Positions 1,351-64,000 of a stretch of DNA of 64,000 bases are shown in pieces (the first letter of the stretch is position 1; each line of letters starts with the position of its first letter). The position numbers and the translations under genes are program-made. The notes below the pieces were generated by a model. That model saw only the letters and a list, made by a program, of their open reading frames with translations, was not told the DNA's origin and did not search any database. This stretch comes from an uncultured Clostridia bacterium (lineage in GTDB: Bacteria > Bacillota > Clostridia > Christensenellales > CAG-314), in the NCBI GenBank assembly GCA_947570215.1, contig CANOTO010000007.1:31537-95536 (forward strand). Reading direction: 5' to 3'.

Positions 1351-1394
1351 CATGGTAAAACTGTATAGCGCATGCGCCCGTAGATGCAAATTGA

Positions 1395-1423
1395 TTGTCA
1401 TTTTCGGAAAAACGTGATATACT
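1395..1423 (+). promoter_or_regulatory. Candidate sigma-A promoter for the downstream non-coding RNA
   Basis: TTGTCA (1395-1400), a 17-nt spacer, then TATACT (1418-1423). It lies about 20 nt upstream of the 5' arm of the long-range closing helix. Confidence 0.4.
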
Positions 1424-1429
1424 ATATAT

Positions 1430-2029
1430 ACTGGATGAAAAATATGGTGGTGCAGTATTCTAGTCAGTAATCGACGTATTGAAGGCGGGCCTAAAAGACC
1501 GTCGACGAGCATATCGATGAAGTTTCTTGTGCCGGCTTTCGTTGCCCAAACGGGGGTCGGTGCTGGAAGTTAAGAATAGTGGGTAAAGCGCAATGGCATG
1601 TGTCCTATCCCCAGTATTCGTGGAGACTCTACAGGGTGGCGGTAACTTAATGAGTGTCGCTACTCTCTGAGATTAAACCTGCTATGCGGTGAACAAAAAG
1701 CTGTGTACAGAGTAGCTTGTTTTGAGTGGAATTTTGGGAGTAATGAACGCTTCGCGTTTGTTGGCCGACAGCGCGCAACGATTGCTTTACAAAATGAATT
1801 CTGCAAAAGAAACTAAAATACGGTGTTACTGCAAAGGAAATCTTCTAGACTGTATTAGGCTTGTCAGAGATTATAGTACGGACTTAGTGGCGATTCAGTT
1901 ACAGTCGTGGCGACACCCTGTAAGCAAAATTAAAAGGAAACTGCTTCTGCGGCGACGGGAAGTTTTTGCTTGGGAAATCCTACTGAACCTATGCCGTAAG
2001 GTTTATTTGACGAGTCACCACCTTTTTTT
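1430..2029 (+). ncRNA. Large structured ncRNA, probable OLE (ornate, large, extremophilic) RNA; ends are approximate
   Basis: No credible coding sequence lies between the ispA stop (1350) and the oapA start (2097). A long-range helix pairs GGTGGTG (1446-1452) with CACCACC (2016-2022) and is followed by T7 (2023-2029). Local helices: 1471-1476/1500-1505, 1746-1750/1754-1758, 1899-1904/1918-1923. The ~580-600 nt span and the context ispA-[RNA]-[4-TM protein]-dxs match what is published for OLE. Confidence 0.7.
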
Positions 2030-2096
2030 ATTATCCTGCGTTATGTACTGCGACGAAAACGTTTCGTCCGCTTTATTAAAATTATTGTGGAGAACT

Positions 2097-2753
2097 ATGA
2101 AAAATTCCGACCCTGTTCCGTTACGAGAACAAAGCGATATTACCGAAACGCCGGAAAAAACTGCTTCCGATTCCGTAAAAAAGAAAGATAAAGAAAAAAA
2201 CGAAAAGAAAAAGAAGAAGACGCGTAATTTGTGGCCGTTGAAGGCTATGATTATTACGTTGTTTTTATCTTTTGCAGTTAATGCGGGCTCGGAGTTGGTG
2301 CTTACGGGCGCGCAATGGTGGTTGGCAACCCTGCTTACATTGGTTATTTTGGCTTTTGGCGTGCTGTTTGACATGATAGGCACTGCTTCGACGGCTTGCG
2401 ATGTGGAACCTTTTTTGGCAATGGCTTCACGAAAAGTTAAGGGGGCAAAAACCGCGGTAAAAATGGCTAAAAACAGTCATATTGTTTCGTCCGTTTGCTG
2501 CGATATAGTAGGAGATATATGCGGTATTGTTTCCGGCGTATGCTCTGCGGCGATTTTTATGAGTTTGGCTAACGGTTTTAGCGACAATTTGAGCGACATT
2601 GCCAATTTTTTTGTAAAGGTCGCTATATCGGCAATAGTATCTACCGCAACGATTACTCTTAAAGCCGTAGGCAAAAACTTTGCCGTTAATAACAGTAACA
2701 AAATTATTTTTGGTGTAGCCAAAATTCTCAGCTTTTTCCATAAGGACGCCTGA
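2097..2753 (+). CDS. oapA: OLE-associated membrane protein OapA-like (218 aa, lysine-rich N-terminus, 4 predicted TM helices)
   Basis: ATG at 2097 is preceded by GGAG (2089-2092). The N-terminus is very basic (KKKDKEKNEKKKKKTR). Four hydrophobic helices follow, with paired motifs FDMIGTA and CDIVGDICGIVSG. It sits between the RNA and dxs. The ORF-track start at 1722 lies inside the RNA. Confidence 0.65.
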   Translation: MKNSDPVPLREQSDITETPEKTASDSVKKKDKEKNEKKKKKTRNLWPLKAMIITLFLSFAVNAGSELVLTGAQWWLATLLTLVILAFGVLFDMIGTASTACDVEPFLAMASRKVKGAKTAVKMAKNSHIVSSVCCDIVGDICGIVSGVCSAAIFMSLANGFSDNLSDIANFFVKVAISAIVSTATITLKAVGKNFAVNNSNKIIFGVAKILSFFHKDA

Positions 2754-7172: not shown

Positions 7173-8291
7173 GTGGATATGAAAAAAACGATATTTCTTC
7201 TGTTAATTTTTCTATTGTGCTTGCAGTGTGCTGTAATTCCATTGACGGCGAATACGGTAAAAGCCGTATGCGATAACAATTGCGCGGTTAGCGTAGCTAA
7301 CGCAGACGTTATAGACGACGTTTTGGATTTGTTTACCGGAGCGGCTAATACGAACACGTCTGCCACAATAGACGAGGAAGTTTATCTCGGCGGATATCCG
7401 ATTGGAATAACGATAGACGGCGAAGGCGTAACTGTAATAGGCTTAAACGAATTTGTAGGCGCGGACGGCAAACTGTGTTGTCCGGCAATGAACGCCGGCA
7501 TAACAATAAACGACGTTGTAGTAGAGCTGGACGGTAAAAGAATTTACAATTCCGCCAAGCTTGCGGAAATAGCAAGCCGTTCCGAAGGCAGAGAGCTTAC
7601 GCTGAAATACCTACGCGACGGCGCTGTTGCCGAGACCGTTATAAAACCGCAGAAGGATCTTACGACTAATCAATACCGTTTGGGGCTGTGGTCCAGAGAC
7701 GCGTCCAGCGGTATAGGCACGCTTACGTATGTGCGCAAAAATCTTAATTTCGGAAGTCTCGGTCATCCTATAACAGACCCCAAAGGCAATATTGTTAACT
7801 GCAAAAACGGCGGAGTATTTCACTGTACTATTGACGGCGTTGAGAAGGGACGCAAGGGCTCGGCAGGCGAATTGAAGGGAAGTTTTTCATTTGACAGACG
7901 TATAGGTAACATATATGCAAATAACAAGTTCGGAGCTTTCGGAACGTTTAATTCGATGCCTAACTTTTGTAAAGAGCCGATAAGAGTTGCCGACATAGGT
8001 GAAATTAAACCGGGTAAAGCGCGTATTTACTGTACTCTGTCCGACAACGTCCGCAAAAGCTATGAAATAGAGATTGTAAAAGCCGTAGCGCAGAGTTCGC
8101 GGGATGACAGGGGTATGGTTATTCACGTAACCGACAAAGAGCTGCTTGCGCAAACCGGCGGCATTGTGCAGGGGATGAGCGGTAGCCCGATTGTTCAAAA
8201 CGGAAAACTCGTAGGCGCAGTTACGCACGTTTTTGTTAACGATCCAACCCGCGGCTACGGTATGTACGCTAAGTGGATGCTTACTAATTAG
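7173..8291 (+). CDS. spoIVB: SpoIVB peptidase (S55), sporulation signalling protease
   Basis: Signal/TM N-terminus, a PDZ region, and the S55 catalytic region GGIVQGMSGSPIVQNGKLVGAVTHVF. Follows recN as in Bacilli and Clostridia. Confidence 0.9.
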   Translation: MDMKKTIFLLLIFLLCLQCAVIPLTANTVKAVCDNNCAVSVANADVIDDVLDLFTGAANTNTSATIDEEVYLGGYPIGITIDGEGVTVIGLNEFVGADGKLCCPAMNAGITINDVVVELDGKRIYNSAKLAEIASRSEGRELTLKYLRDGAVAETVIKPQKDLTTNQYRLGLWSRDASSGIGTLTYVRKNLNFGSLGHPITDPKGNIVNCKNGGVFHCTIDGVEKGRKGSAGELKGSFSFDRRIGNIYANNKFGAFGTFNSMPNFCKEPIRVADIGEIKPGKARIYCTLSDNVRKSYEIEIVKAVAQSSRDDRGMVIHVTDKELLAQTGGIVQGMSGSPIVQNGKLVGAVTHVFVNDPTRGYGMYAKWMLTN

Positions 8292-8297
8292 CATAAA

Positions 8298-8900
8298 ATG
8301 ATTAAAATGCTCATATCAATTGATATGGGCATTTTGTTGTATCTGCGCAATACCGCGGACGATATTCATCATAAGATTTGCGTATACAAATGGAAGTTTA
8401 TTATTAGTGTGCTTTCCTGTCTATTAGGCTTTGCATTAGGCATTGCGCTTTTTTACGCGTTTCGGTACGGTTGGTGGTATTTTAACAGAACGACGTTCGC
8501 TGACAAGATTATGCAGGCGGGCTTCGACGTAGTAATATACTTTGTAGTGACAAGCCTATTCGCCTATTTAGGTTTTGCTTTGTGCGGTTTGATTAAGGGA
8601 ACGCATTATCTAAGGTTGGTAGTGTCCTGTATTATATGCTTTTACTGCGGAGCTTGCGTAGTCGCGTTATTTACATTGTCTGTTATGTGGGGTATACTGT
8701 ACCTATTGTTTATAGCGCTTGCCGACTTGGCGTTCTGCTCGGTCGCGTGTTTTTGCTGTATTTGTGAAAAAGCGGTTTGCAAGACGTTTCGCGAATCGCT
8801 TTGCGATCAGACGCAAACGGCAGCTATAATAATTGCTTGGACAGTTTACAAGTTATTGGCTTTCTTTGTTGTAATAAAAATACTAACTTGCTTAATTTGA
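8298..8900 (+). CDS. Hypothetical cysteine-rich multi-pass membrane protein
   Basis: 200 aa with about 5 hydrophobic helices and about 16 Cys, including CFYCGAC and CSVACFCCIC. I recognise no family. The start codon is uncertain because no clear RBS is present. Confidence 0.45.
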   Translation: MIKMLISIDMGILLYLRNTADDIHHKICVYKWKFIISVLSCLLGFALGIALFYAFRYGWWYFNRTTFADKIMQAGFDVVIYFVVTSLFAYLGFALCGLIKGTHYLRLVVSCIICFYCGACVVALFTLSVMWGILYLLFIALADLAFCSVACFCCICEKAVCKTFRESLCDQTQTAAIIIAWTVYKLLAFFVVIKILTCLI

Positions 8901-14137: not shown

Positions 14138-14587
14138 ATGGAAAAAACTTACGAAATCACCAAAGACAATTATAAATCGTATGTATTCGAAAAGATGCCC
14201 AAAAGCTCGCACTGGAAGAATATGATATGGGCGTTCATAGTAGGCGGCGTAATATGTACGATAGGTCAAGCATTCATCGAGTTGTATAAACTGTGGTTTT
14301 CCGTAGAGGACGCTTCGGTATTGGCTTCCGGAACAATGGTTCTTATCGCCGCTATATTTACAGGATTGGGGATTTACGACAATATCGGTCGTTTCGCCGG
14401 CGCAGGTTCAACCATTCCCATAACAGGCTTTTCCAATGCGGTTGTATCTCCTGCTTTAGAATTCCGTTCGGAGGGGTATATTTACGGCGTCGGCGCGAAA
14501 ATGTTTTTAGTGGCAGGACCCGTTATAGTTAACGGCGTAACGATTTCCGTTATTATAGCGTTGCTTACGCTGCTTTTCGGGGGTTGA
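14138..14587 (+). CDS. spoVAC: Stage V sporulation protein AC
   Basis: 149-aa 4-TM protein with GAGSTIPITGFSNAV. It is the first gene of the spoVAC-AD-AEB triplet. Confidence 0.9.
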   Translation: MEKTYEITKDNYKSYVFEKMPKSSHWKNMIWAFIVGGVICTIGQAFIELYKLWFSVEDASVLASGTMVLIAAIFTGLGIYDNIGRFAGAGSTIPITGFSNAVVSPALEFRSEGYIYGVGAKMFLVAGPVIVNGVTISVIIALLTLLFGG

Positions 14588-14588
14588 T

Positions 14589-15590
14589 ATGGGCTACTAC
14601 AAGAATCGAACGCTTACGTTTGACAATTCATATATCATCGAAGGCTATACTGTCGCCGGACCTAAAGAAAACGACGGCCGATATAAGGGGTTCTTCGATT
14701 TGGCGTTAAACGACGATATGTTCGGACAGAACACGTTCGAGCGCGCCGAGAGAAAAATGTTCGAGCATGCGATAGACGGCGTTATAGGCAAAGCAAATCT
14801 TGAAAACGGTGACGTAGACGCGGTTTTGGGCGGTGATTTGCTCAACCAGAACGTTTCTATGTCTTTTTCCGCGCGTAATCAGCACGCGGGCTTTTTGGGG
14901 CTGTACAACGCCTGCGCGACGTATGCAGAAAGCTTGATAGTCGGTTCGTGTCTTGTGTCTAACGGTTATGAAAACGTTGTGTGCGTTGCCGGAAGTCACT
15001 TTTCTACGGCGGAGCGTCAATATAGATATCCGCTGGAATTGGGTGTACTGCGTTCGCCCGTAACGCAATGGACGGCTACCGGCGTTGGCGCGACGGTTTT
15101 ATCTAATCAAAGCGCGGTCAGCGTTCCAAAAATTACCCGCGCAACAATAGGCAGAGTGGTGGACTACGGAATAATGGACGTTAATAATATGGGGGCTGCC
15201 ATGGCGCCGTCCGCCTGCGACACTCTGGTAACGTTTTTCCGCGATACGAACGCCTGTCCCGAAGATTACGACGTGATATATACGGGCGACTTGGGAAAAT
15301 TAGGCTCGGATATACTTTTGGATCTTGCTCGGCAGGAAGGCTGTGACATTTCGTCCAAACAGCACGACTGCGGCGCTTCGCTTTACTGGGACGAGCAACA
15401 AACTTATCAGGGAGGCAGCGGCGCAGCTTGTTCCGCCTTGGTGTTCAATAGCGTTTTGCTCGGTCGTCTGCGTAGGGGTGAATACAAAAAAATACTTCTA
15501 TTAGGCACGGGCGCGCTTATGAGTCCGACCACGTCCTTCCAAGGGGACAGTATACCCGCAATTACGCACTTAGTGGAGGTTTGCATTTAG
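14589..15590 (+). CDS. spoVAD: Stage V sporulation protein AD
   Basis: 333-aa thiolase/KAS-like fold protein located between spoVAC and spoVAEB. Confidence 0.9.
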   Translation: MGYYKNRTLTFDNSYIIEGYTVAGPKENDGRYKGFFDLALNDDMFGQNTFERAERKMFEHAIDGVIGKANLENGDVDAVLGGDLLNQNVSMSFSARNQHAGFLGLYNACATYAESLIVGSCLVSNGYENVVCVAGSHFSTAERQYRYPLELGVLRSPVTQWTATGVGATVLSNQSAVSVPKITRATIGRVVDYGIMDVNNMGAAMAPSACDTLVTFFRDTNACPEDYDVIYTGDLGKLGSDILLDLARQEGCDISSKQHDCGASLYWDEQQTYQGGSGAACSALVFNSVLLGRLRRGEYKKILLLGTGALMSPTTSFQGDSIPAITHLVEVCI

Positions 15591-15591
15591 T

Positions 15592-15963
15592 ATGGAAACA
15601 TTTTGGATGTTTGTCAAAGCCTTTTTAATAGGCGGAGGCATATGCCTGATAGGTCAAATAATAATTAATTTTACGCACTTGACTAACGGTAAAATTCTTG
15701 TACTGTTCCTAATTGCGGGAGCGGTATTGGAAGGTTTCGGCTTATACAGCAAGCTGATTGAATTTGCGGGAGCGGGAGCAAGTATTCCCATTTCCGGCTT
15801 CGGCTGCGCATTGGTTAAGGGCGCGGTTAAGTCTGCGCATCAAGAAGGGGTTTACGGAGCTCTTAAAGGCGGTTTGGCGGCTTGTGCAACAGGTATATCC
15901 GTCGCAATTGTAGCAGGTTATCTGGTCGCCGTTCTGTTCCGTCCGCGTACCAAAAAGAAATAA
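15592..15963 (+). CDS. spoVAEB: Stage V sporulation protein AEB
   Basis: 123-aa membrane paralogue of SpoVAC (GAGASIPISGFG). Confidence 0.85.
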   Translation: METFWMFVKAFLIGGGICLIGQIIINFTHLTNGKILVLFLIAGAVLEGFGLYSKLIEFAGAGASIPISGFGCALVKGAVKSAHQEGVYGALKGGLAACATGISVAIVAGYLVAVLFRPRTKKK

Positions 15964-16012: not shown

Positions 16013-16696
16013 ATGTATAATTACACTGTGGTAAATAAGGACGCCAAGCGTAAAAAACGTAAAAGTTTGTGGCGCAAAATCGCATTTACTATTGCCGTTA
16101 TAGTTACCATAAGCGTGTTGCTCGCGCTATGGATTTACTGGAAATCAATGACGCCGACAATTTTGGACGTGGCGGTAACACGCTTGAAATCGGAAACGGC
16201 GCGCGTTATAAACGAAGCCGTATGTTTAGCTATTACCAACGAATGCAATTACGCCGACTTTGTGACTATAGAGAAAAATTCCAATAACGATATTACTATG
16301 ATTACCGCCAACAGCAGTCTTGTTAACTCTCTCGCGCGCAATACAGCGCTGCTGTCGCAAAGTAAAATCAACGATTTGACCTCATTTGACGTGAACGTTC
16401 CGTTCGGTACACTGTCCGGTATACCGCTGTTATCCGAAAAAGGACCTAAAATAAATATCGTAGTTACGCCCGTAGGCACGGTAAATTGCACATTTACTTC
16501 GACGTTCGAAACCGCAGGGATAAATCAAACGTTACACCGTATTTATCTTAATGTGGAAAGCGTGGTGGATCTGATTATTCCTACCGCGCATACCGAAGTG
16601 GCAACCTCGACGCCAGTACTGCTTTGCGAAAGCGTAATTATAGGAAAAGTCCCCGATACATTTTTGCAGGGCGGACTGCTTCTCGGTTCTTCTTGA
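16013..16696 (+). CDS. yunB: Sporulation protein YunB
   Basis: N-terminal TM anchor. The C-terminal block IPLLSEKGPKINIVVTPVGTV...AGINQTLHRIYLNVE resembles B. subtilis YunB (LGPKIPVRF...GINNALIDI...). Confidence 0.7.
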   Translation: MYNYTVVNKDAKRKKRKSLWRKIAFTIAVIVTISVLLALWIYWKSMTPTILDVAVTRLKSETARVINEAVCLAITNECNYADFVTIEKNSNNDITMITANSSLVNSLARNTALLSQSKINDLTSFDVNVPFGTLSGIPLLSEKGPKINIVVTPVGTVNCTFTSTFETAGINQTLHRIYLNVESVVDLIIPTAHTEVATSTPVLLCESVIIGKVPDTFLQGGLLLGSS

Positions 16697-16765: not shown

Positions 16766-16799
16766 GAATTTGTATTTAACGTAATAGAAAAAAACGTCG

Positions 16800-17032
16800 A
16801 CGAAGCGCAAGAGTTTACGAGCAACAACGTTTAGCGAGCAGGGGGCGGTGCAAGCCCTGCCGTTGCGTAAAAAGATATTCCCTTCCGAGTTCGAGCGGTG
16901 AAATCAGTAGCCGTTTGCGGGTAGTTTCCGTTATAAAACTCAAAGGGAAGATTATTGTTTTAATCTTTCGAAGTTAGGTGGTACCGCGCTCTATGATCGC
17001 CCTAAGTCGTATTTTGCGACTTGGGGCTTTTT
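16800..17032 (+). promoter_or_regulatory. T-box riboswitch leader (Phe) with terminator
   Basis: Conserved T-box sequence AGTTAGGTGGTACCGCG (16972-16988). GGTGCAA distal-loop-like motif. UUC codons at 16878-16892 are specifier candidates. Terminator stem 16999-17009/17017-17027 plus T5. Lies directly upstream of pheS. Confidence 0.85.
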
Positions 17033-17102
17033 GTATTTGCCTATCTAAGCATTGAAATTAAACTATTATTGTTTTAGCGCAATATCGAATAAAGGAGTTA
17101 GT

Positions 17103-18119
17103 ATGATTACTATTGGAGAAATCAAGAATAAGTTCGACGCTGAAGTCTGCGACTGTCAAACGACCGAGCAGGCGCAGGACATCAAAGTACGGTATTTGGG
17201 TAAATCCGGCGAGTTGACCGCTTTGCTTAAAGGCATAAAAGACTTATCGCCCGAAGAACGTCCTTCATTCGGAGCAAAGGTAAACGAGCTGCGAAATTAT
17301 ATTGAAAGCGCGCTGCAATCTAAGCTCGCCGAGATGAAGGAGTTGGAAATGCAACGTCGTTTACAGCAGGAAAAAGTGGACGTAAGCTTAACCGACGTTC
17401 GTCCTTGGGGCGCGCTGCACCCCGTAACGCTTGTTGAAAACGAAATTTGCCGACTTATGACGGCGATGGGCTTCGAAGTTCTGTCCGGTCCGGAAATCGA
17501 AACGGATTATTACAACTTTCAAGCTTTGAACATTCCTTACGATCATCCTGCGCGGGATATGCAGGATACCTTTTATATCACGGACGGCATATTGCTGCGT
17601 ACGCACACGTCGCCTATGCAGGCTCGCTTGATGGAAAAGAAGAAGCCGCCTATCAAAATGCTGTGCCCCGGCAAGGTGTTCCGTTCGGACAGCGACGCGT
17701 CGCATTCGCCTGTATTTCATCAAATCGAAGCTCTTGTGGTTGACGAAAACGTAACCTTGTGCGACTTGAAGGGTACTTTGGAGTATTTGGCTTCAAAGCT
17801 GTTCGGTAAAAGCACAAAAGTACGCTTTCGCCCGTCCTTTTTCCCGTTTACCGAACCGAGCGTAGAAGTGGATCTTTCTTGCAGTAATTGCGGCGGCAAT
17901 GGATGTTCGTTATGTAAAGGTACGGGTTGGATAGAAGTACTGGGGGCCGGAATGGTAAATCCGTTCGTTTTGGAAAATTGCGGGATAGACAGTTCTAAAT
18001 ACAACGGCTACGCTTTTGGCATGGGATTGGAACGCATAGCGATGATAAAGTACGGCATTCCCGATATACGCTTGTTTTACGAAAACGACGCGCGCTTTAT
18101 TAAACAATTCGGCAAATAA
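17103..18119 (+). CDS. pheS: Phenylalanine--tRNA ligase alpha subunit
   Basis: Class II aaRS motifs ([21 protein letters not shown]). ATG 17103 follows AAAGGAG. The ORF-track start at 17052 lies in the leader. Confidence 0.95.
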
Positions 18120-18131
18120 GGAGACAGCATA

Positions 18132-20504
18132 ATGAAATTACCGCTTTCTTGGATACGTGATTACGTTGATATAACTGAAGATATAGAAACTTTGTGTAAA
18201 AAAATGGTGGATATCGGACTCGAGATAGAAGAAGTAGTATATCTCGGCGAACACGTTACCAACGTCAAAGTATGTCAGATAAAAGAAATATCTCAGCATC
18301 CCAATGCAGAGCGCTTGCTTTGCTGCAAAGTAGATATCGGCACAGAGATTTTGCCGATAGTAACTAACGACCATAACGTAAAAGTCGGAGATAAGGTTCC
18401 CGTAGCTTTGCATAACGCCGACCTTGCAAACGGCTTGCATATCACAAAAGGAAAAATGCGCGGAGAAGAATCCTATGGCATGTTTTGCGGTGCGGAAGAA
18501 TTGGGCATCAACTCCGATATGTATCCCAATGCCGACAAGGACGGCGTGCTGATATTAAACGCCGACGCGCAAGTAGGTCAAGATATACGGCAAGAAGTAG
18601 GAATTGACGATTACGTATTGGACGTAAACGTTACCGCCAACCGCCAGGACTGCAACAGCGTTTTGGGGCTTGCGCGCGAAGTTGCCGTTGCGCTTGGCAA
18701 AGATTGCAAGCAACCCGACATTTCGTATTCCGAAACGGGAAATGCTACCAACGACTTGGTAACGGTTAACGTTGAGGCGTCGGATATATGCAAGGGATAC
18801 TTTATGCAAGGGCTAACCGACGTTAAAATAGGCCAGTCGCCGTTGTGGCTCACAAGCCGACTGGCAAAGGTAGGACTGCGCGGAATAAACAATTTAGTGG
18901 ATATAACTAATTACGTTTTGTTCGAAATAGGACAGCCTATGCACGCGTTTGATTGCGACGATATAGCCGATAAAACGATAGTTGTGCGCAGAGCCTGCAA
19001 CGGAGAAAAAATCGTCCCGCTTGACGGCAAAGAGTACGTATTGAATTCCGACGATTTGGTAATAGCGGATAAGCTACGGGCGGTTGGCTTGGCGGGTATT
19101 ATGGGCGGAGCAAATTCGGAAATAAAAGAAAGCACCGCTTGCGTTCTGTTCGAATCCGCTTCCTTCGCACGAATGAATGTACGCCGTACAAGCAGAAGAT
19201 TGGGCTTGCGTTCCGATTCGTCCGCGCGTTTCGAAAAAGGCATAGAAACCTACACAAATAACTTAGGACTGTCCAGAGCGCTGCATTTGGCGGAACAGCT
19301 CGGCTGCGGCAAGGTTACTCGCGGAAGAATATCTGTAGGAGAAGTAGCGGGAGACAGAACAATCACGCTTCCGACAGAACGGATAAAAAGTCTGCTCGGC
19401 ATAGTTATACCCGACGACAGAATTGTTGCTATATTAAAATCGCTGAACATAGGCGCGACTATTGCAGACGGAACGCTTAGCTGCACAGTTCCGCCGTATC
19501 GCGACGATATAACGCGCGATTGCGATATTGTTGAAGAACTGATTCGCGTCTATGGCTACGATAACATTAAGGGAACATTGCTGGAAGGTTCGCATGTTAC
19601 CTGCGGCGGGAAAACGACTGAAAGCGACAATTGCGACAAAATACGAGAAATGCTGTGCGGACTGCGCTACAACGAATGCATATTATATCCTTTCGGCGGA
19701 AAGGAATTATTTGCAAAGGCAAGCAGCGCACCGATAGATGAAAGCCAATATATACGCTTGCTTAATCCTATCGGCGAAGAAGTGTCGCTGATGAACAGAG
19801 AATTAGCCCCCGCTATGCTTCAATGCGCGGCGCTTAATATGTCTCGCAACAACGGCGATATAAGAATGTTCGAAATAGGCAAAGCGTATTTAGCGGACAG
19901 CTTGCCGTTGACGGCACTGCCCCGCGAGCAACTGCGCTTATCTATGTGCGCTACGGGAACCGACTTCGACGCTTTCCGTCAAGACGTATTACAAGTAACG
20001 CGTTATTTTATACGCGACAAATTGAAGCTGATCCGTTCCGCGTCCCCCATATTACACCCGGGAATTTCCGCGGAAATATTGTCGGGAGAAGAAAATTTGG
20101 GATATTTCGGAAGAATCCACCCGAAGGTTGCGTCCAACTTCGATATCGGCACGGACTGTATGTACGCAGAACTGTATTTAGACAAGCTAATGCGCGATCG
20201 CTCGGAAATAAAATTCCGTCCGTTTGCGAAATATCCGTCTATATCGCGCGACTTTGCCTTCCTTTGCGACGAAGACGTTGCTGCGCAGGACATACTGAAC
20301 GAATTTGACGCGTTAAGCTTAGCGGAAAATTGCTGTCTGTTCGACGTATATCGCGGCGAGCAATTGGGCGAGAATAAAAAAAGCTTGGCGGTATCAGTAG
20401 TATTCCGCGATAAAAACAGGACTTTGCAGGATTCCGACGTGGAAAAGCAAATAAGCAAGGCTCTTAAAAATATTCAGGCAAAATACGGCGCAACATTGCG
20501 TTAG
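18132..20504 (+). CDS. pheT: Phenylalanine--tRNA ligase beta subunit
   Basis: 790 aa. N-terminal MKLPLSWIRDYV, with tRNA-binding, B3/4, B5 and FDX-ACB domain order. Confidence 0.95.
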   Translation: MKLPLSWIRDYVDITEDIETLCKKMVDIGLEIEEVVYLGEHVTNVKVCQIKEISQHPNAERLLCCKVDIGTEILPIVTNDHNVKVGDKVPVALHNADLANGLHITKGKMRGEESYGMFCGAEELGINSDMYPNADKDGVLILNADAQVGQDIRQEVGIDDYVLDVNVTANRQDCNSVLGLAREVAVALGKDCKQPDISYSETGNATNDLVTVNVEASDICKGYFMQGLTDVKIGQSPLWLTSRLAKVGLRGINNLVDITNYVLFEIGQPMHAFDCDDIADKTIVVRRACNGEKIVPLDGKEYVLNSDDLVIADKLRAVGLAGIMGGANSEIKESTACVLFESASFARMNVRRTSRRLGLRSDSSARFEKGIETYTNNLGLSRALHLAEQLGCGKVTRGRISVGEVAGDRTITLPTERIKSLLGIVIPDDRIVAILKSLNIGATIADGTLSCTVPPYRDDITRDCDIVEELIRVYGYDNIKGTLLEGSHVTCGGKTTESDNCDKIREMLCGLRYNECILYPFGGKELFAKASSAPIDESQYIRLLNPIGEEVSLMNRELAPAMLQCAALNMSRNNGDIRMFEIGKAYLADSLPLTALPREQLRLSMCATGTDFDAFRQDVLQVTRYFIRDKLKLIRSASPILHPGISAEILSGEENLGYFGRIHPKVASNFDIGTDCMYAELYLDKLMRDRSEIKFRPFAKYPSISRDFAFLCDEDVAAQDILNEFDALSLAENCCLFDVYRGEQLGENKKSLAVSVVFRDKNRTLQDSDVEKQISKALKNIQAKYGATLR

Positions 20505-30697: not shown

Positions 30698-32017
30698 TTG
30701 AAATATTTTATTCATACCTACGGCTGTCAAATGAACGTTCACGATTCGGAAAAAATCGCCGGCATTATGGAAGGACTGGGATACGAGTCCTGTTCGTCGG
30801 CGCATAACGCCGACGCGGTTATCTTCAATACCTGTTGCATACGCGAAACGGCGGAGCAGAAAATTTACGGACATATCGGGGAGCTGAAAAAAGTCAAACG
30901 CGCAAAACCGAATATGATTGTGGCGGTGTGCGGCTGTATGTCGCAGCAAACGGGCGTAGCGGACAAAATAAAGGAGAGTTATCCTTTTGTAGATATCGTA
31001 CTCGGAACGTCTAATCTCAATCTTTTGCGTGAAGCGGTATTATCCGCTCAAAACAAAAAACGCAGTTTTAACGTGGATTTTAGGCAATACAACGAAGAAG
31101 ACTTTGCGCAATCGCGCACAAGCTTTCCAAATGCGTGGGTCAATATCAATTACGGCTGCAACAATTTCTGCACGTATTGCATAGTTCCGTACGTTCGCGG
31201 ACGGGAACGCAGTCGCAGGACGTCGGACATAATGGCGGAAGTTAAAAGCCTGCTTGCGCAGGGCTACAAAGAAATTACTCTTCTCGGGCAAAATGTAAAT
31301 TCCTACGGGCACGACTTGCCATACGGAGAAAGCTTTGCGTCGCTGCTGAAAGAAATCGGCGAATTGGACGGCAAGTTTCGTTTGCGCTTTATGACTTCGC
31401 ACCCCAAAGATTTGTCCGACGAAGTAATAGACGCGGTAGCGGCGTACCCAAATATTTGTAATAATATTCATCTGCCCGTCCAAAGCGGCAGTACGGAAAT
31501 TTTACGACGTATGAACCGCAGATACACCCGTGACGATTATTTGTCGTTGGTGCAGCGCATACGCGCAAAATTGCCCGACGTAGGCATTACGACAGACATA
31601 ATGGTGGGCTTCCCGGGGGAAACGGAAAAGGACTTCGAAGATACGCTGGACCTTGTAAAGCAGGCGCGATACAGCTCCGCATTTTGCTTTATTTATTCGC
31701 GCAGAAAAGGAACGCCCGCGTATTCGATGGATAATCAGATACCCTATGCTGTCAAGCGCGACCGTATAACGCGTTTGCTGGCATGTCAAAACGAAGTTAC
31801 GAAAGAAATAAGCCGAAATATGTTGGGTAAACGCTACGAAGTGTTGGTAGAAGGCGCGAATACGCATTACGCCGATACAATGTGCGGGCGGACGGAAAGC
31901 GGAAGACTTGTTAACTTCAAATGCGACGATTCGTATATTGGAAAGTTTGTTATTGTGGAAATAGAACAAGCGAAATCTGCCACCTTGTGGGGATCGATTG
32001 TTAAGGAGCGACAATGA
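30698..32017 (+). CDS. miaB: tRNA-2-methylthio-N6-dimethylallyladenosine synthase
   Basis: UPF0004 N-terminal domain (TYGCQMN), a radical-SAM CNNFCTYC motif, and a TRAM C-terminus. TTG 30698 lies 7 nt after AAGGAGA. Confidence 0.9.
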   Translation: MKYFIHTYGCQMNVHDSEKIAGIMEGLGYESCSSAHNADAVIFNTCCIRETAEQKIYGHIGELKKVKRAKPNMIVAVCGCMSQQTGVADKIKESYPFVDIVLGTSNLNLLREAVLSAQNKKRSFNVDFRQYNEEDFAQSRTSFPNAWVNINYGCNNFCTYCIVPYVRGRERSRRTSDIMAEVKSLLAQGYKEITLLGQNVNSYGHDLPYGESFASLLKEIGELDGKFRLRFMTSHPKDLSDEVIDAVAAYPNICNNIHLPVQSGSTEILRRMNRRYTRDDYLSLVQRIRAKLPDVGITTDIMVGFPGETEKDFEDTLDLVKQARYSSAFCFIYSRRKGTPAYSMDNQIPYAVKRDRITRLLACQNEVTKEISRNMLGKRYEVLVEGANTHYADTMCGRTESGRLVNFKCDDSYIGKFVIVEIEQAKSATLWGSIVKERQ

Positions 32018-60993: not shown

Positions 60994-63117
60994 TTACAGC
61001 TTTTTAACGAGCTTGAGATCGATTCTTCCCTTTTCGTCGATTTTGATTACTTTGACCACTACAGTATCGTCTATATTTACTACGTCGGTAACCTTTTCGA
61101 CGCGTTCCTTAGCAAGCTTGGAAATGTGAATCATTCCATCCTTACCGGGAGCAAGCTCTACAAATGCGCCGAAATCGAGAATTCTGACAACCTTGCCCGT
61201 AAATTCTTCGCCCACTTCGGGATCCTTGGCAATAGCAAGAACCATTCGCTTGGCTTTATCCGACATCTCCTGATCCGCGGTAGCAATGAACACTACGCCG
61301 TCGTCGGTAATATCGATTTTTACGCCGGTTTCGTCGATAATCTTATTGATGACCTTTCCGCCGCTTCCGATGACTTCTCTTATCTTATCGGGGTCGATGT
61401 TGAAAGAAATAATCTTAGGCGCGTATTTGGAAAGCTCTTGACGGGGAGCAGGCAACACTTTAAGCATCTGCTCCAATATAAACAATCTGCCTTGACGCGC
61501 TTGTTCCAAAGCCGTGCGAAGAATATTCTCGTCGATACCCTTAATCTTGATATCCATTTGAATAGCCGTAATCCCTTTACTCGTACCCGCTACCTTGAAG
61601 TCCATATCGCCAAGGAAGTCTTCCAACCCTTGAATATCGGACAAAATAGCCACCTTAGAACCGTCTTCGGACTTCATAAGCCCCATTGCTATACCGGCCA
61701 CAGGAGCCTTGATTGGAACGCCTGCGTCCATAAGCGCCAAAGTAGATCCACAGATACTTGCTTGCGACGTACTGCCGTTACTGCTCACAACTTCCGAAAC
61801 GGTACGTATAGCGTAGGGGAATTCCGATTCGTCGGGAATTACCGGATCGAGCGCTCTTTCCGCCAATGCGCCATGCCCTATTTCGCGGCGTCCCGGACTG
61901 CGCAACGGCTTGGCTTCGCCCGTGGAATACCCCGGCATATTGTAATGATGCATATAACGCTTGAAAGTGTCCGTGTCGTCCAAATTTTCCAATTTTTGAA
62001 CTTCACTGACAGTGCCCAGTGTAGCAGTGGTAATTACCTGCGTCATACCGCGGGTAAATACTCCGCTGCCGTGAACGCGAGGCAAAATTCCCGCTTCGCA
62101 CCAAATGGGACGAATTTCCGTAAGCTTTCTTCCGTCGGGACGAACGCCTTCGTTAAGAATACGGGCGCGAACCTTTTCTTTGGTCATTTTGTAAAGCACG
62201 TCGCCTATTTCCGCAACCACTTCGGGATTAGTCTGCTCAAAGTGCTCGGTAACCTTGCGTTCTACTTCGTCTTGATTAGCTTGACGCTCATACCTGTCAA
62301 ATGTTTTCAACGCGTCGTTAAGCATTCCGTCGGCATATTCGCGGATAATGGCTTCATGTTCCGCCATCGGAAGATGAAGCTCCACTTGCTTCTTGGTTTT
62401 GCCGACTTCCTTACAAATAAATTCGATGAACTCGCACTGCTCCTTGATAGCTTCGTGGCCAAACAAAATAGCGTCAAGCATTTCTTTTTCGGATATTTCG
62501 TTCGCTCCGGCTTCCACCATCATAATGGCGTCCTTTGTTCCTGCAAGATTCAAGCTGAGCCGACTGCGCTCCTTTTGCTCTGCGTTGGGATTGATAACGT
62601 ATTTGCCGTCGACATACCCAACAACTACGCTTCCCGTAGGTCCCGCAAAAGGAATGTCAGAAATCGATAAAGCAATAGAACTACCCATCATAGCGTACAC
62701 TTCAGGCTGAATATCCGGTTCTACCGACATTGCGGTAGCAACAACGGATACGTCGTTCAAAAATCCCTTGGGGAAAAGCGGTCTAATCGGTCTGTCGATT
62801 AAACGCGACGTTAAAATCGCTTTGTCGCTTGCCCTGCCTTCTCTTTTCTTAAAACCGCCGGGAATCTTACCGACGGAGTACATTTTTTCTTCAAAGTCTA
62901 CTCCCAAAGGGAAGAAATCTATTCCGTCTCTGGGTTTGGCTGCCAGTGTAACGTTCGTCATAACTACCGTTTCTCCGCAAGATACCATGCAAGAGCCGTT
63001 AGCTTGTTCGGCATATTTGCCGATTTCTACCGAAACGGTTCTGCCGCCGATTTCGGTTTCGAAAACATGATATTCTCTATTTCCGATTTTACCGACCTTT
63101 TTTCTGAATTTTTCCAT
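60994..63117 (-). CDS. pnp: Polyribonucleotide nucleotidyltransferase (PNPase)
   Basis: Two RNase PH domains, then a KH domain (GSGGKVINKI) and an S1 domain (FGAFVEL...DGMIHISKL). ATG 63117 is preceded by AGGAGAAGG. Confidence 0.95.
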   Translation of the reverse strand: MEKFRKKVGKIGNREYHVFETEIGGRTVSVEIGKYAEQANGSCMVSCGETVVMTNVTLAAKPRDGIDFFPLGVDFEEKMYSVGKIPGGFKKREGRASDKAILTSRLIDRPIRPLFPKGFLNDVSVVATAMSVEPDIQPEVYAMMGSSIALSISDIPFAGPTGSVVVGYVDGKYVINPNAEQKERSRLSLNLAGTKDAIMMVEAGANEISEKEMLDAILFGHEAIKEQCEFIEFICKEVGKTKKQVELHLPMAEHEAIIREYADGMLNDALKTFDRYERQANQDEVERKVTEHFEQTNPEVVAEIGDVLYKMTKEKVRARILNEGVRPDGRKLTEIRPIWCEAGILPRVHGSGVFTRGMTQVITTATLGTVSEVQKLENLDDTDTFKRYMHHYNMPGYSTGEAKPLRSPGRREIGHGALAERALDPVIPDESEFPYAIRTVSEVVSSNGSTSQASICGSTLALMDAGVPIKAPVAGIAMGLMKSEDGSKVAILSDIQGLEDFLGDMDFKVAGTSKGITAIQMDIKIKGIDENILRTALEQARQGRLFILEQMLKVLPAPRQELSKYAPKIISFNIDPDKIREVIGSGGKVINKIIDETGVKIDITDDGVVFIATADQEMSDKAKRMVLAIAKDPEVGEEFTGKVVRILDFGAFVELAPGKDGMIHISKLAKERVEKVTDVVNIDDTVVVKVIKIDEKGRIDLKLVKKL

Positions 63118-63189
63118 TTTCTTTTTCCTTCTCCTTACAACTATATTTCCCAAGAAAAACCGCTTTATACGGCCTTTCGGTTAAAGACA

Positions 63190-63247: not shown

Positions 63248-63502
63248 TTATTTTCTGAGCCCTAAGTCGGCGATAATCTGACGATATTTTTCAATATCGG
63301 TCTGCTTGAGATAGTCCAACAATCCCTTTCTGCGTCCTACCATTTGAAGCAATCCGCGTCTGGAATGGTGATCCTTTTGATGCGTTCTCAAATGCTCGGT
63401 AAGGTGATTGATGCGTTCCGTGAGTAACGCGATTTGAACTTCGGGAGAACCGGTATCTCCTTCCTTTCTGCCAAACTTAGCGATAATTTCCTGCTTATTC
63501 AT
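63248..63502 (-). CDS. rpsO: 30S ribosomal protein S15
   Basis: [38 protein letters not shown] is near-invariant S15 sequence. ATG 63502 is preceded by AAAGGAGAAAG. Confidence 0.95.
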
Positions 63503-63590
63503 TGTTATCTTTCTCCTTTTATATATTTGCCGCAAACCAAGAACAAAGTCGGAGTCGTCTGAATTCTTAGTAAACGGTATTAAACTTTAA

Positions 63591-64000
63591 TTATTCCGCA
63601 TCTGAACGAACGGATTCGGGACGCGGGAGCAAGGCTTTTCTGGAAAGGGTTATACGCTTGTTTTCCGCGTCGAATTCCATAATTTGCACTTCGATATCGT
63701 CGCCGATCTTCAACGCCTTGTTGATGTCGTCCAACCATTCCCAAGAAACGTTGGAAACGTGAAGCAATCCGTCGATATTTTTATCCAATTCGACAAATGC
63801 GCCGAAAGGCATTATACGCGCTACTTTGCCCGTAACAATTGCTCCTATGGGGAATTTTTCTTCCGCCAGCTGCCAAGGCTCCGGCTGAAGCTGCTTATAG
63901 CCCAAAGACACTCTGTTCTTTTCTCTGTCGAGCGCAAGCACTACAAACTCGTATGTATTGCCAATTTCCAAAACGTCCTGAGGTCCCTTTACGTGTTCCC
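63591..64000 (-). CDS. S1 RNA-binding-domain protein (ribosomal protein S1-like), C-terminal part; 5' end lies outside the window
   Basis: S1 repeats are present (GKVARIMPFGAFVELDKNIDGLLHVSNVS). The frame is open to the window edge. Confidence 0.7.
   Translation of the reverse strand, partial: EHVKGPQDVLEIGNTYEFVVLALDREKNRVSLGYKQLQPEPWQLAEEKFPIGAIVTGKVARIMPFGAFVELDKNIDGLLHVSNVSWEWLDDINKALKIGDDIEVQIMEFDAENKRITLSRKALLPRPESVRSDAE

Follow-up and report, generated by a model that had tools for sequence, protein, structure and literature searches.

A full-length OLE RNA gene adjoining a predicted oapA gene in an uncultured gut-type Clostridia bacterium

OLE (ornate, large, extremophilic) RNA has been known since 2006 and its representatives are spread across the Bacillota. 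A 64,000-nucleotide (nt) stretch of DNA from an uncultured Clostridia bacterium (i.e. positions 31,537 to 95,536 of contig CANOTO010000007.1; hereafter the window, meaning the whole stretch) was found to carry an OLE RNA gene at 1431..2037 of the forward strand, followed by the gene for the membrane-protein partner OapA at 2097..2753. A probability of about 0.97 was assigned to this reading. In a preliminary description of the same DNA, a structured non-coding RNA of ~600 nt had been proposed in this position as a probable OLE, and a search with the Rfam OLE covariance model and an examination of covariation in aligned relatives had been suggested as checks. Both comparisons were performed and both supported the proposal.

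The whole window was scanned against Rfam 15. The OLE model (RF01071) produced a significant match at 1431..2037 (+) with a score of 452.5 bits (gathering score, 50; E = 1.3e-129), which extended over positions 1–616 of the 616 positions of the model without truncation and was the sole strong match in the region. Identity was observed at 214 of the 249 highly conserved (i.e. upper-case) consensus positions (86%), with deletions at 14 model positions and insertions totalling 5 nt, and standard pairs were formed by 141 of the 154 model base pairs mapped onto the window. The minimum free energy of the RNA had a z-score of -2.94 (20 shuffles) and the corresponding fold closed the molecule with the same terminal helix as that described below. 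No evidence contradicting the OLE assignment was found. This instance is an ordinary full-length member of a well-known family, for which about 2,800 representatives have been catalogued (PMC11332333), and is in that sense already known.

Conservation of secondary structure was assessed by counting pairs in a MAFFT alignment of 39 OLEs, whose sequences are related to one another. The pairs counted were those of the Rfam structure and of three long-range helices that are missing from the Rfam structure line and were derived from the sequence and the published description of P1–P3. Stem (P) numbers follow a mapping inferred from the text, not the figures, of PMC12265935 and other papers. Across the 39 OLEs, 88.5% of cells were paired as compared to 41–45% when the partners were slid by 1–3 columns. 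Changes on both sides were present in 133 of 183 pairs and none of 500 shuffles reached the observed values, indicating that these RNAs share a covarying structure. The preliminary description had proposed a closing helix between GGTGGTG (1446-1452) and CACCACC (2016-2022), which are complementary and are followed by seven T. Six of these pairs (1446-1451/2017-2022) withstood the comparison, being 98.3% paired and having changed on both sides in four of the six (e.g. UA to CG five times). The seventh pair (1452/2016) did not, as it competes with the pair 1858/2016 of the Rfam model. The six-pair terminal helix probably corresponds to the published stem P1. For the proposed P2, the near-invariant nucleotides are compatible with pairing rather than proof of it, because there is almost no variation. 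For the proposed P3, a stem suggested to span the membrane (PMC12265935), both-sided changes were detected in 14 of 15 pairs, in a variable region where the MAFFT alignment is imperfect. The 39 related loci provide fresh covariation support for P1 and P3, neither of which is in the Rfam structure line.

Four local helices listed in the preliminary description are all complementary in the window, but only part of one of them is conserved. The inner pairs 1901-1903/1919-1921 of the helix 1899-1904/1918-1923 coincide with the covarying stem P13. The helix 1471-1476/1500-1505 was 59.8% paired in the relatives and clashes with P3 and P4, the helix 1746-1750/1754-1758 was 48.6% paired and is incompatible with the long P9 hairpin, and the nested GTCG/CGAC pairing (1904-1907/1911-1914) was 31.6% paired, the family structure at this point being GUG/CAC closed by a GCGA loop. 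These three were rejected as conserved structures.

The loop motifs associated with dimerisation are all present by sequence, i.e. the A-rich loop of P4, the complementary loops of P5.1 and P6.1 and the palindromic loop of P9 (Table 1). In published work, P4 and P9 are dimerisation centres 1 and 4, respectively, and a contact between two OLE molecules is possible through the GGC of the P6.1 loop of one and the GCC of the P5.1 loop of the other (PMC12265935). The OapB site, for which a GNRA loop and a one-nucleotide bulge are the described features (PMC7936274), is represented in P13, and the nucleotides of the OapC-binding kink-turns (k-turns) are likewise present; the roles of the k-turns and kissing loops have been reported previously (PMC9723947, PMC12286853, PMC12265935). 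Variation in length was observed among the relatives: the Oscillospiraceae-type OLEs (loci L039, L046, L059 and L085) have an extra insertion of ~21 nt between P5 and P6 (alignment columns 141-161) and longer P7 and P8 loops, giving RNAs of 659-672 nt.

Reduced OLE variants 1 and 2 have been described from the TANB77 and RF39 clades (Fernando and Breaker 2024; PMC11332333) and, like the window OLE, belong to uncultured, gut-associated hosts for which metagenome assemblies are the only source. In these variants, P7, P8 and P9 are shortened or missing and the OapB site is missing, whereas all of these elements are kept in the window OLE. As P7, P8 and P9 have the full length of the model and the P13 GNRA loop is retained with its bulge, the window OLE is of the full-length type and is not a reduced variant 1 or 2. 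Departures from the Rfam consensus could also be read as marks of a decaying or non-functional OLE relic: 35 of the 249 highly conserved positions deviate, 13 of the 154 model pairs are non-standard and only AUUA is left of a small optional hairpin (model positions 424-435). These differences are, however, common to the whole clade of relatives and many of them are compensated within helices. Furthermore, every loop motif linked to function is intact, the adjoining oapA gene is intact and under purifying selection, and the score of 452.5 bits lies inside the range of the relatives (388-518 bits). A relic is thus a most improbable explanation.

An ispA-like ORF (open reading frame; polyprenyl synthase) ends with a stop at 1350, leaving a gap of 746 nt (1351..2096) before the ATG at 2097; the preliminary description had placed the gap correctly but gave its length as 745 bp. 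Much of this gap is covered by a mechanical ORF of 343 amino acids (aa) at 1722..2753 (+), which has a TTG start and is uninterrupted to its stop. On this reading, the region would code for 125 N-terminal residues of a longer protein, and its RNA-like features would be incidental. Several observations are at odds with such a protein. An in-frame stop is located 12-99 nt 5' of the conserved ATG in all 14 of the relatives inspected, in which a GGAG-type ribosome-binding site is also conserved. In a comparison with five relatives, substitutions in 1722..2036 were evenly distributed over the codon positions (e.g. 9/11/12), as compared to a predominance of third positions in 2097..2750 (29/17/108). 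The extension (1722..2096) had no protein-family match in Pfam or NCBIfam, and homologues, which are 208-243 aa long, align over the whole of the 218-aa protein. In public assemblies with an identical protein, the called gene is one of 218 aa beginning at the ATG equivalent to 2097, preceded by a gap of 747 nt after ispA in which no gene is called. The 343-aa ORF, already suspected of being false over the gap in the preliminary description, is an accident of missing stop codons and the longer protein has in practice been refuted. For annotation, the 343-aa ORF should be trimmed to the 218-aa oapA and the gap labelled ole.

The 218-aa product is predicted to be OapA from its position, size and CNNM/DUF21 likeness, a match that is moderate only. 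A weak CNNM/DUF21 match was obtained with Pfam (E = 1.1e-4, below the Pfam threshold), and a distant likeness of this kind has been published for OapA (PMC11332333). The NCBIfam scan of the protein matched no family and returned no OapA model. The structure was modelled with AlphaFold2 from 42 homologues (mean predicted local distance difference test score (pLDDT), 69.5), yielding four long helices (residues 46-71, 74-100, 127-161 and 167-198) preceded by a lysine-rich N-terminal segment (32-45); K39, K41, K49 and R112 are invariant. The top six fold matches in the PDB were CNNM/CorB/CorC transmembrane domains, among which MtCorB and CorC were best (7m1t_A: template-modelling (TM) score, 0.49; root-mean-square deviation, 3.5 over 151 columns). 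The link to CNNM/CorB is drawn solely from the sub-threshold Pfam match and this fold comparison. The predicted OapA resembles known OapA and the CNNM/DUF21 transmembrane domain of the MpfA/CorB/CorC Mg2+ transporters in being small, with four long helices, a basic cluster and a weak CNNM match, and is unlike true MpfA/CorB proteins in having neither the CBS pair nor the CorC_HlyC domain.

The association between the two genes was examined with an OapA family profile, by which 589 related genes were obtained from GTDB species genomes; 40 of the best 80 loci were scanned with Rfam. An OLE match was located immediately upstream of the OapA homologue and on the same strand in 39 of the 40 loci, 38 of these matches being full length and one being cut by a contig end. 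The remaining locus (L036, 1..3200), from a Bacilli metagenome-assembled genome (MAG) and with an OapA homologue of 41% identity, had no OLE match in the 2.5 kb upstream when re-scanned at E values up to 0.01. In the literature, OLE and OapA are described as almost never occurring apart. Three of the loci (L009, L023 and L026) carry labels from outside the Bacillota, Candidatus Fimimonas being placed under Myxococcota in the NCBI taxonomy and one relative being titled 'Corallococcus sp.', and have the OLE directly upstream of and co-oriented with oapA as in the window. These labels look like taxonomy artefacts, and such artefacts could explain some of the reported OLE hits outside Bacillota.

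Several points weigh against the assignment of 1431..2037 and 2097..2753 to OLE and OapA. The fold match of the OapA model was modest (E = 0.008-0.01 at the mean pLDDT given above), and when a profile made from the OapA alignment was run against PDB sequences, nothing beyond a chance match (E = 0.39) was obtained. Neither OapB (KOW/YbzG) nor OapC (L7Ae/YbxF) was found among ten scanned ORFs of 61-184 aa in the 64-kb window, the products of which are RNase H, S15, SpoVAC/SpoVAEB, an S1-domain protein and unknowns. Instead of an extremophile, the host is a probable anaerobe of gut type, which is still inside the known range of the OLE family, and the transcript ends, abundance and membrane location of the OLE in this host are putative.

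A promoter of the gap's own (TTGTCA-17-TATACT at 1395-1423) had been noted in the preliminary description, and is of the sigma-70 type. The transcript start predicted from it, near 1430, coincides with position 1 of the OLE model, and the -10 box ends 7 nt before that position. Taken alone, the promoter match was not above chance, with 4 promoter-like sites as compared to 2.9 expected from shuffles. An extended -10 element (TGnTAnnnT) was, however, present in 29 of 39 OLE loci at a distance of no more than 75 nt 5' of P1, as compared to 7.4% of random 70-nt windows, a recurrence that upholds the promoter and indicates that, in gut Clostridia, ole has conserved an extended -10 promoter dedicated to it. 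The ole gene of Halalkalibacterium halodurans, which lies in a larger operon, is likewise served by a promoter of its own (PMC9723947). After ispA, no terminator was found, so that read-through from upstream is also possible. In many relatives, the extended -10 and P1 are separated by a small, perfectly paired hairpin (e.g. TTCGGACG-TTTA-CGTCCGAA in L009), with the -10 box at 37-46 nt from P1 (loci L009, L013, L014, L020-L023, L025, L027, L029 and L033). The window and L007 have no such hairpin and have a -10-to-P1 distance of 21-22 nt. This upstream hairpin may be a 5'-end stabiliser.

At the other end of the RNA, 30 of 39 homologues had at least five T among the 8 nt that follow P1, and a U run likewise closes the Rfam consensus. 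In several relatives, the OLE end is separated from the oapA start codon by only 10-25 nt. As this spacer has no room for a separate promoter, oapA would be co-transcribed with ole in these relatives, from which it would follow that OLE is released by partial termination or processing. Two other candidate signals were rejected. A separate oapA promoter (TTGACG-16-TATTAT, 2007-2034) has its -35 element inside a covarying OLE helix, and this element varies in the relatives (TTTGAC, TCTGAC, TCCGAC and TCCGAT). A hairpin at 2052-2068 (GACGAAA-ACG-TTTCGTC, with a weak T run) was discounted as a conserved terminator, given the 10-25-nt spacers.

The same arrangement bears on whether OLE is a stand-alone RNA or functions chiefly in cis, as a long structured leader governing how much transcription reads through into oapA-dxs. 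The position of OLE directly upstream of and co-oriented with oapA in 39 of 40 loci, the short spacers implying co-transcription and the U run after P1 would all suit a leader. About a quarter of the relatives, however, keep P1 without a U run. Moreover, the OLE of H. halodurans is an abundant discrete RNA of ~630 nt that binds OapA, OapB and OapC in trans and whose deletion produces stress phenotypes (PMC9723947, PMC12265935), and purified OLE forms ordered dimers (PMC12286853). A mainly cis-acting leader is accordingly improbable, and a stand-alone RNA is preferred, alongside whose trans role a cis role could exist. One form of such control in this clade would be a long-range intrinsic terminator, composed of P1 stacked on the 11-bp helix 1858-1868/2006-2016 and the U run, in which folding of the whole OLE sets the read-through into oapA-dxs. 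The frequency of the U run (30 of 39 loci) and the lack of room for an oapA promoter in several relatives are compatible with this speculative and rather improbable idea. If a folding-dependent terminator did operate, OapA supply, and perhaps isoprenoid synthesis as well, would be tied to how much folded OLE is present.

For the window, only the genetic and structural anatomy was obtained, and the steps of a mechanism were extrapolated from published work on H. halodurans and Clostridium OLEs (PMC12265935, PMC12286853, PMC9723947, PMC7936274, PMC10898510). An RNA of ~600 nt would be transcribed from its own promoter, probably with a contribution from the xseA-xseB-ispA transcript upstream. Partial termination at the U run that follows P1, or processing there, would free it from the oapA co-transcript. 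The RNA would then fold and dimerise through its loop contacts, and OapA may hold it at, and possibly across, the cell membrane. Recruitment of OapB, OapC and bS21 would yield a particle that helps the cell to tolerate alcohols, cold, excess Mg2+ and poor carbon sources. The class is of interest for its biochemical activity and as a proposed membrane-spanning RNA. As a discovery, the window OLE carries little weight, being found by a routine Rfam scan, and its uncultured host makes these questions about the class no more testable.

As compared to the known OLEs of H. halodurans, Clostridium acetobutylicum and C. botulinum, the window copy has the same size of ~600 nt, conserved nucleotides, helices and loop motifs, the same arrangement of an own promoter inside a larger operon with oapA immediately downstream, and the same neighbours (i.e. 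ispA, dxs, argR, recN, xseA/B, folD and sporulation genes). It differs from them in having no small hairpin at model positions 424-435, in 4-nt deletions in P9, in the absence of a tlyA-like or nadK gene between dxs and argR, and in its occurrence in an uncultured gut-type spore-forming Clostridia lineage, where it is known from sequence alone.

Table 1. Coordinates of the ole-oapA features in the window, with pairing percentages from the 39-OLE alignment
Feature	Position	Strand	Description
Sigma-70-type ole promoter	1395..1423	+	TTGTCA, 17 nt, TG-extended TATACT
OLE RNA gene (RF01071)	1431..2037	+	Full length, 607 nt; P1-to-P1 core 1446..2022 of 577 nt
P1 5' strand	1446..1451	+	Pairs with 2017..2022; outside Rfam consensus structure
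P2 proposed 5' strand	1453..1463	+	Pairs with 1845..1852; helices 2-3, 100% paired, nearly invariant
P3/P3.1 proposed 5' strand	1465..1480	+	Pairs with 1817..1831; 15 pairs, 75.7% paired
P4 hairpin	1484..1503	+	A-rich loop CCUAAAAG at 1490-1497; 86% paired
k-turn nucleotides	1516-1522	+	GAUGAAG, just 5' of P5; consensus match
P5/P5.1 hairpin	1523..1569	+	20 pairs, loop GCCCA at 1544-1548; 95.9% paired
P6/P6.1	1574..1619	+	Loop AUGGCA at 1593-1598; helices 7 and 8
k-turn nucleotides	1620-1628	+	CGUGGAGAC; consensus match
P7 hairpin	1627-1671	+	17 pairs, full Rfam-model length
P8 hairpin	1679-1710	+	13 pairs, full Rfam-model length
P9 long hairpin	1719..1813	+	35 pairs, full model length; palindromic GGCC loop at 1763-1766; helices 12-15
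Spurious 125-codon 5' extension of oapA frame over OLE	1722..2096	+	Not coding
3' domain (P11-P15 region)	1858..2016	+	Helices 17-22, 92-100% paired, strong covariation
Nested long-range helices in 3' domain	1858-1868/2006-2016, 1877-1881/1994-1998, 1894-1899/1982-1987	+	
P13	1901-1921	+	GCGA loop at 1910-1913, C1906 bulge
P14	1922-1929/1964-1971	+	
P14.1	1943-1963	+	GCGA loop at 1952-1955
P1 3' strand	2017..2022	+	Directly continues 3' strand of helix 1858-1868/2006-2016
T7 run directly after P1	2023..2029	+	Likely OLE 3' end or partial termination site
oapA	2097..2753	+	Predicted 218-aa membrane protein; GGAG at 2089-2092; starts 59 nt after OLE match

The gene order in the window is xseA-xseB-ispA-ole-oapA-dxs-argR-recN-spoIVB, and folD is located farther 5' in the source contigs. 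This agrees with the operon set out in the preliminary description, including its remark that tlyA and nadK are absent between dxs and argR, since argR lies directly 3' of dxs. Sporulation genes are located near the OLE block (7173..8291, 14138..15963 and 16013..16696), with spoIVB right after recN and then spoVAC, spoVAD, spoVAEB and yunB, in agreement with the published correlation between OLE and sporulation genes. OapA identity is 80-82% in the nearest species representatives, which are MAGs of uncultured Clostridia from the guts of animals. The host, itself uncultured, is a spore former of Clostridia type that presumably grows anaerobically, and falls among the anaerobic or extremophilic Bacillota from which the OLE family is known.

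Three further features of the window were recorded. A 200-aa hydrophobic ORF (8298..8900, +) directly after spoIVB had no match in the NCBIfam scan; the position after spoIVB is presumably occupied by spo0A in Bacillus subtilis. At one edge of the window (63248..63971, -), genes for ribosomal protein S15 and an S1-domain protein adjoin a 719-aa ORF (60994..63153). A T-box leader was detected at 16788..17007 (+) with 97.9 bits (gathering score, 93), directly 5' of pheS and pheT (17052..20504).

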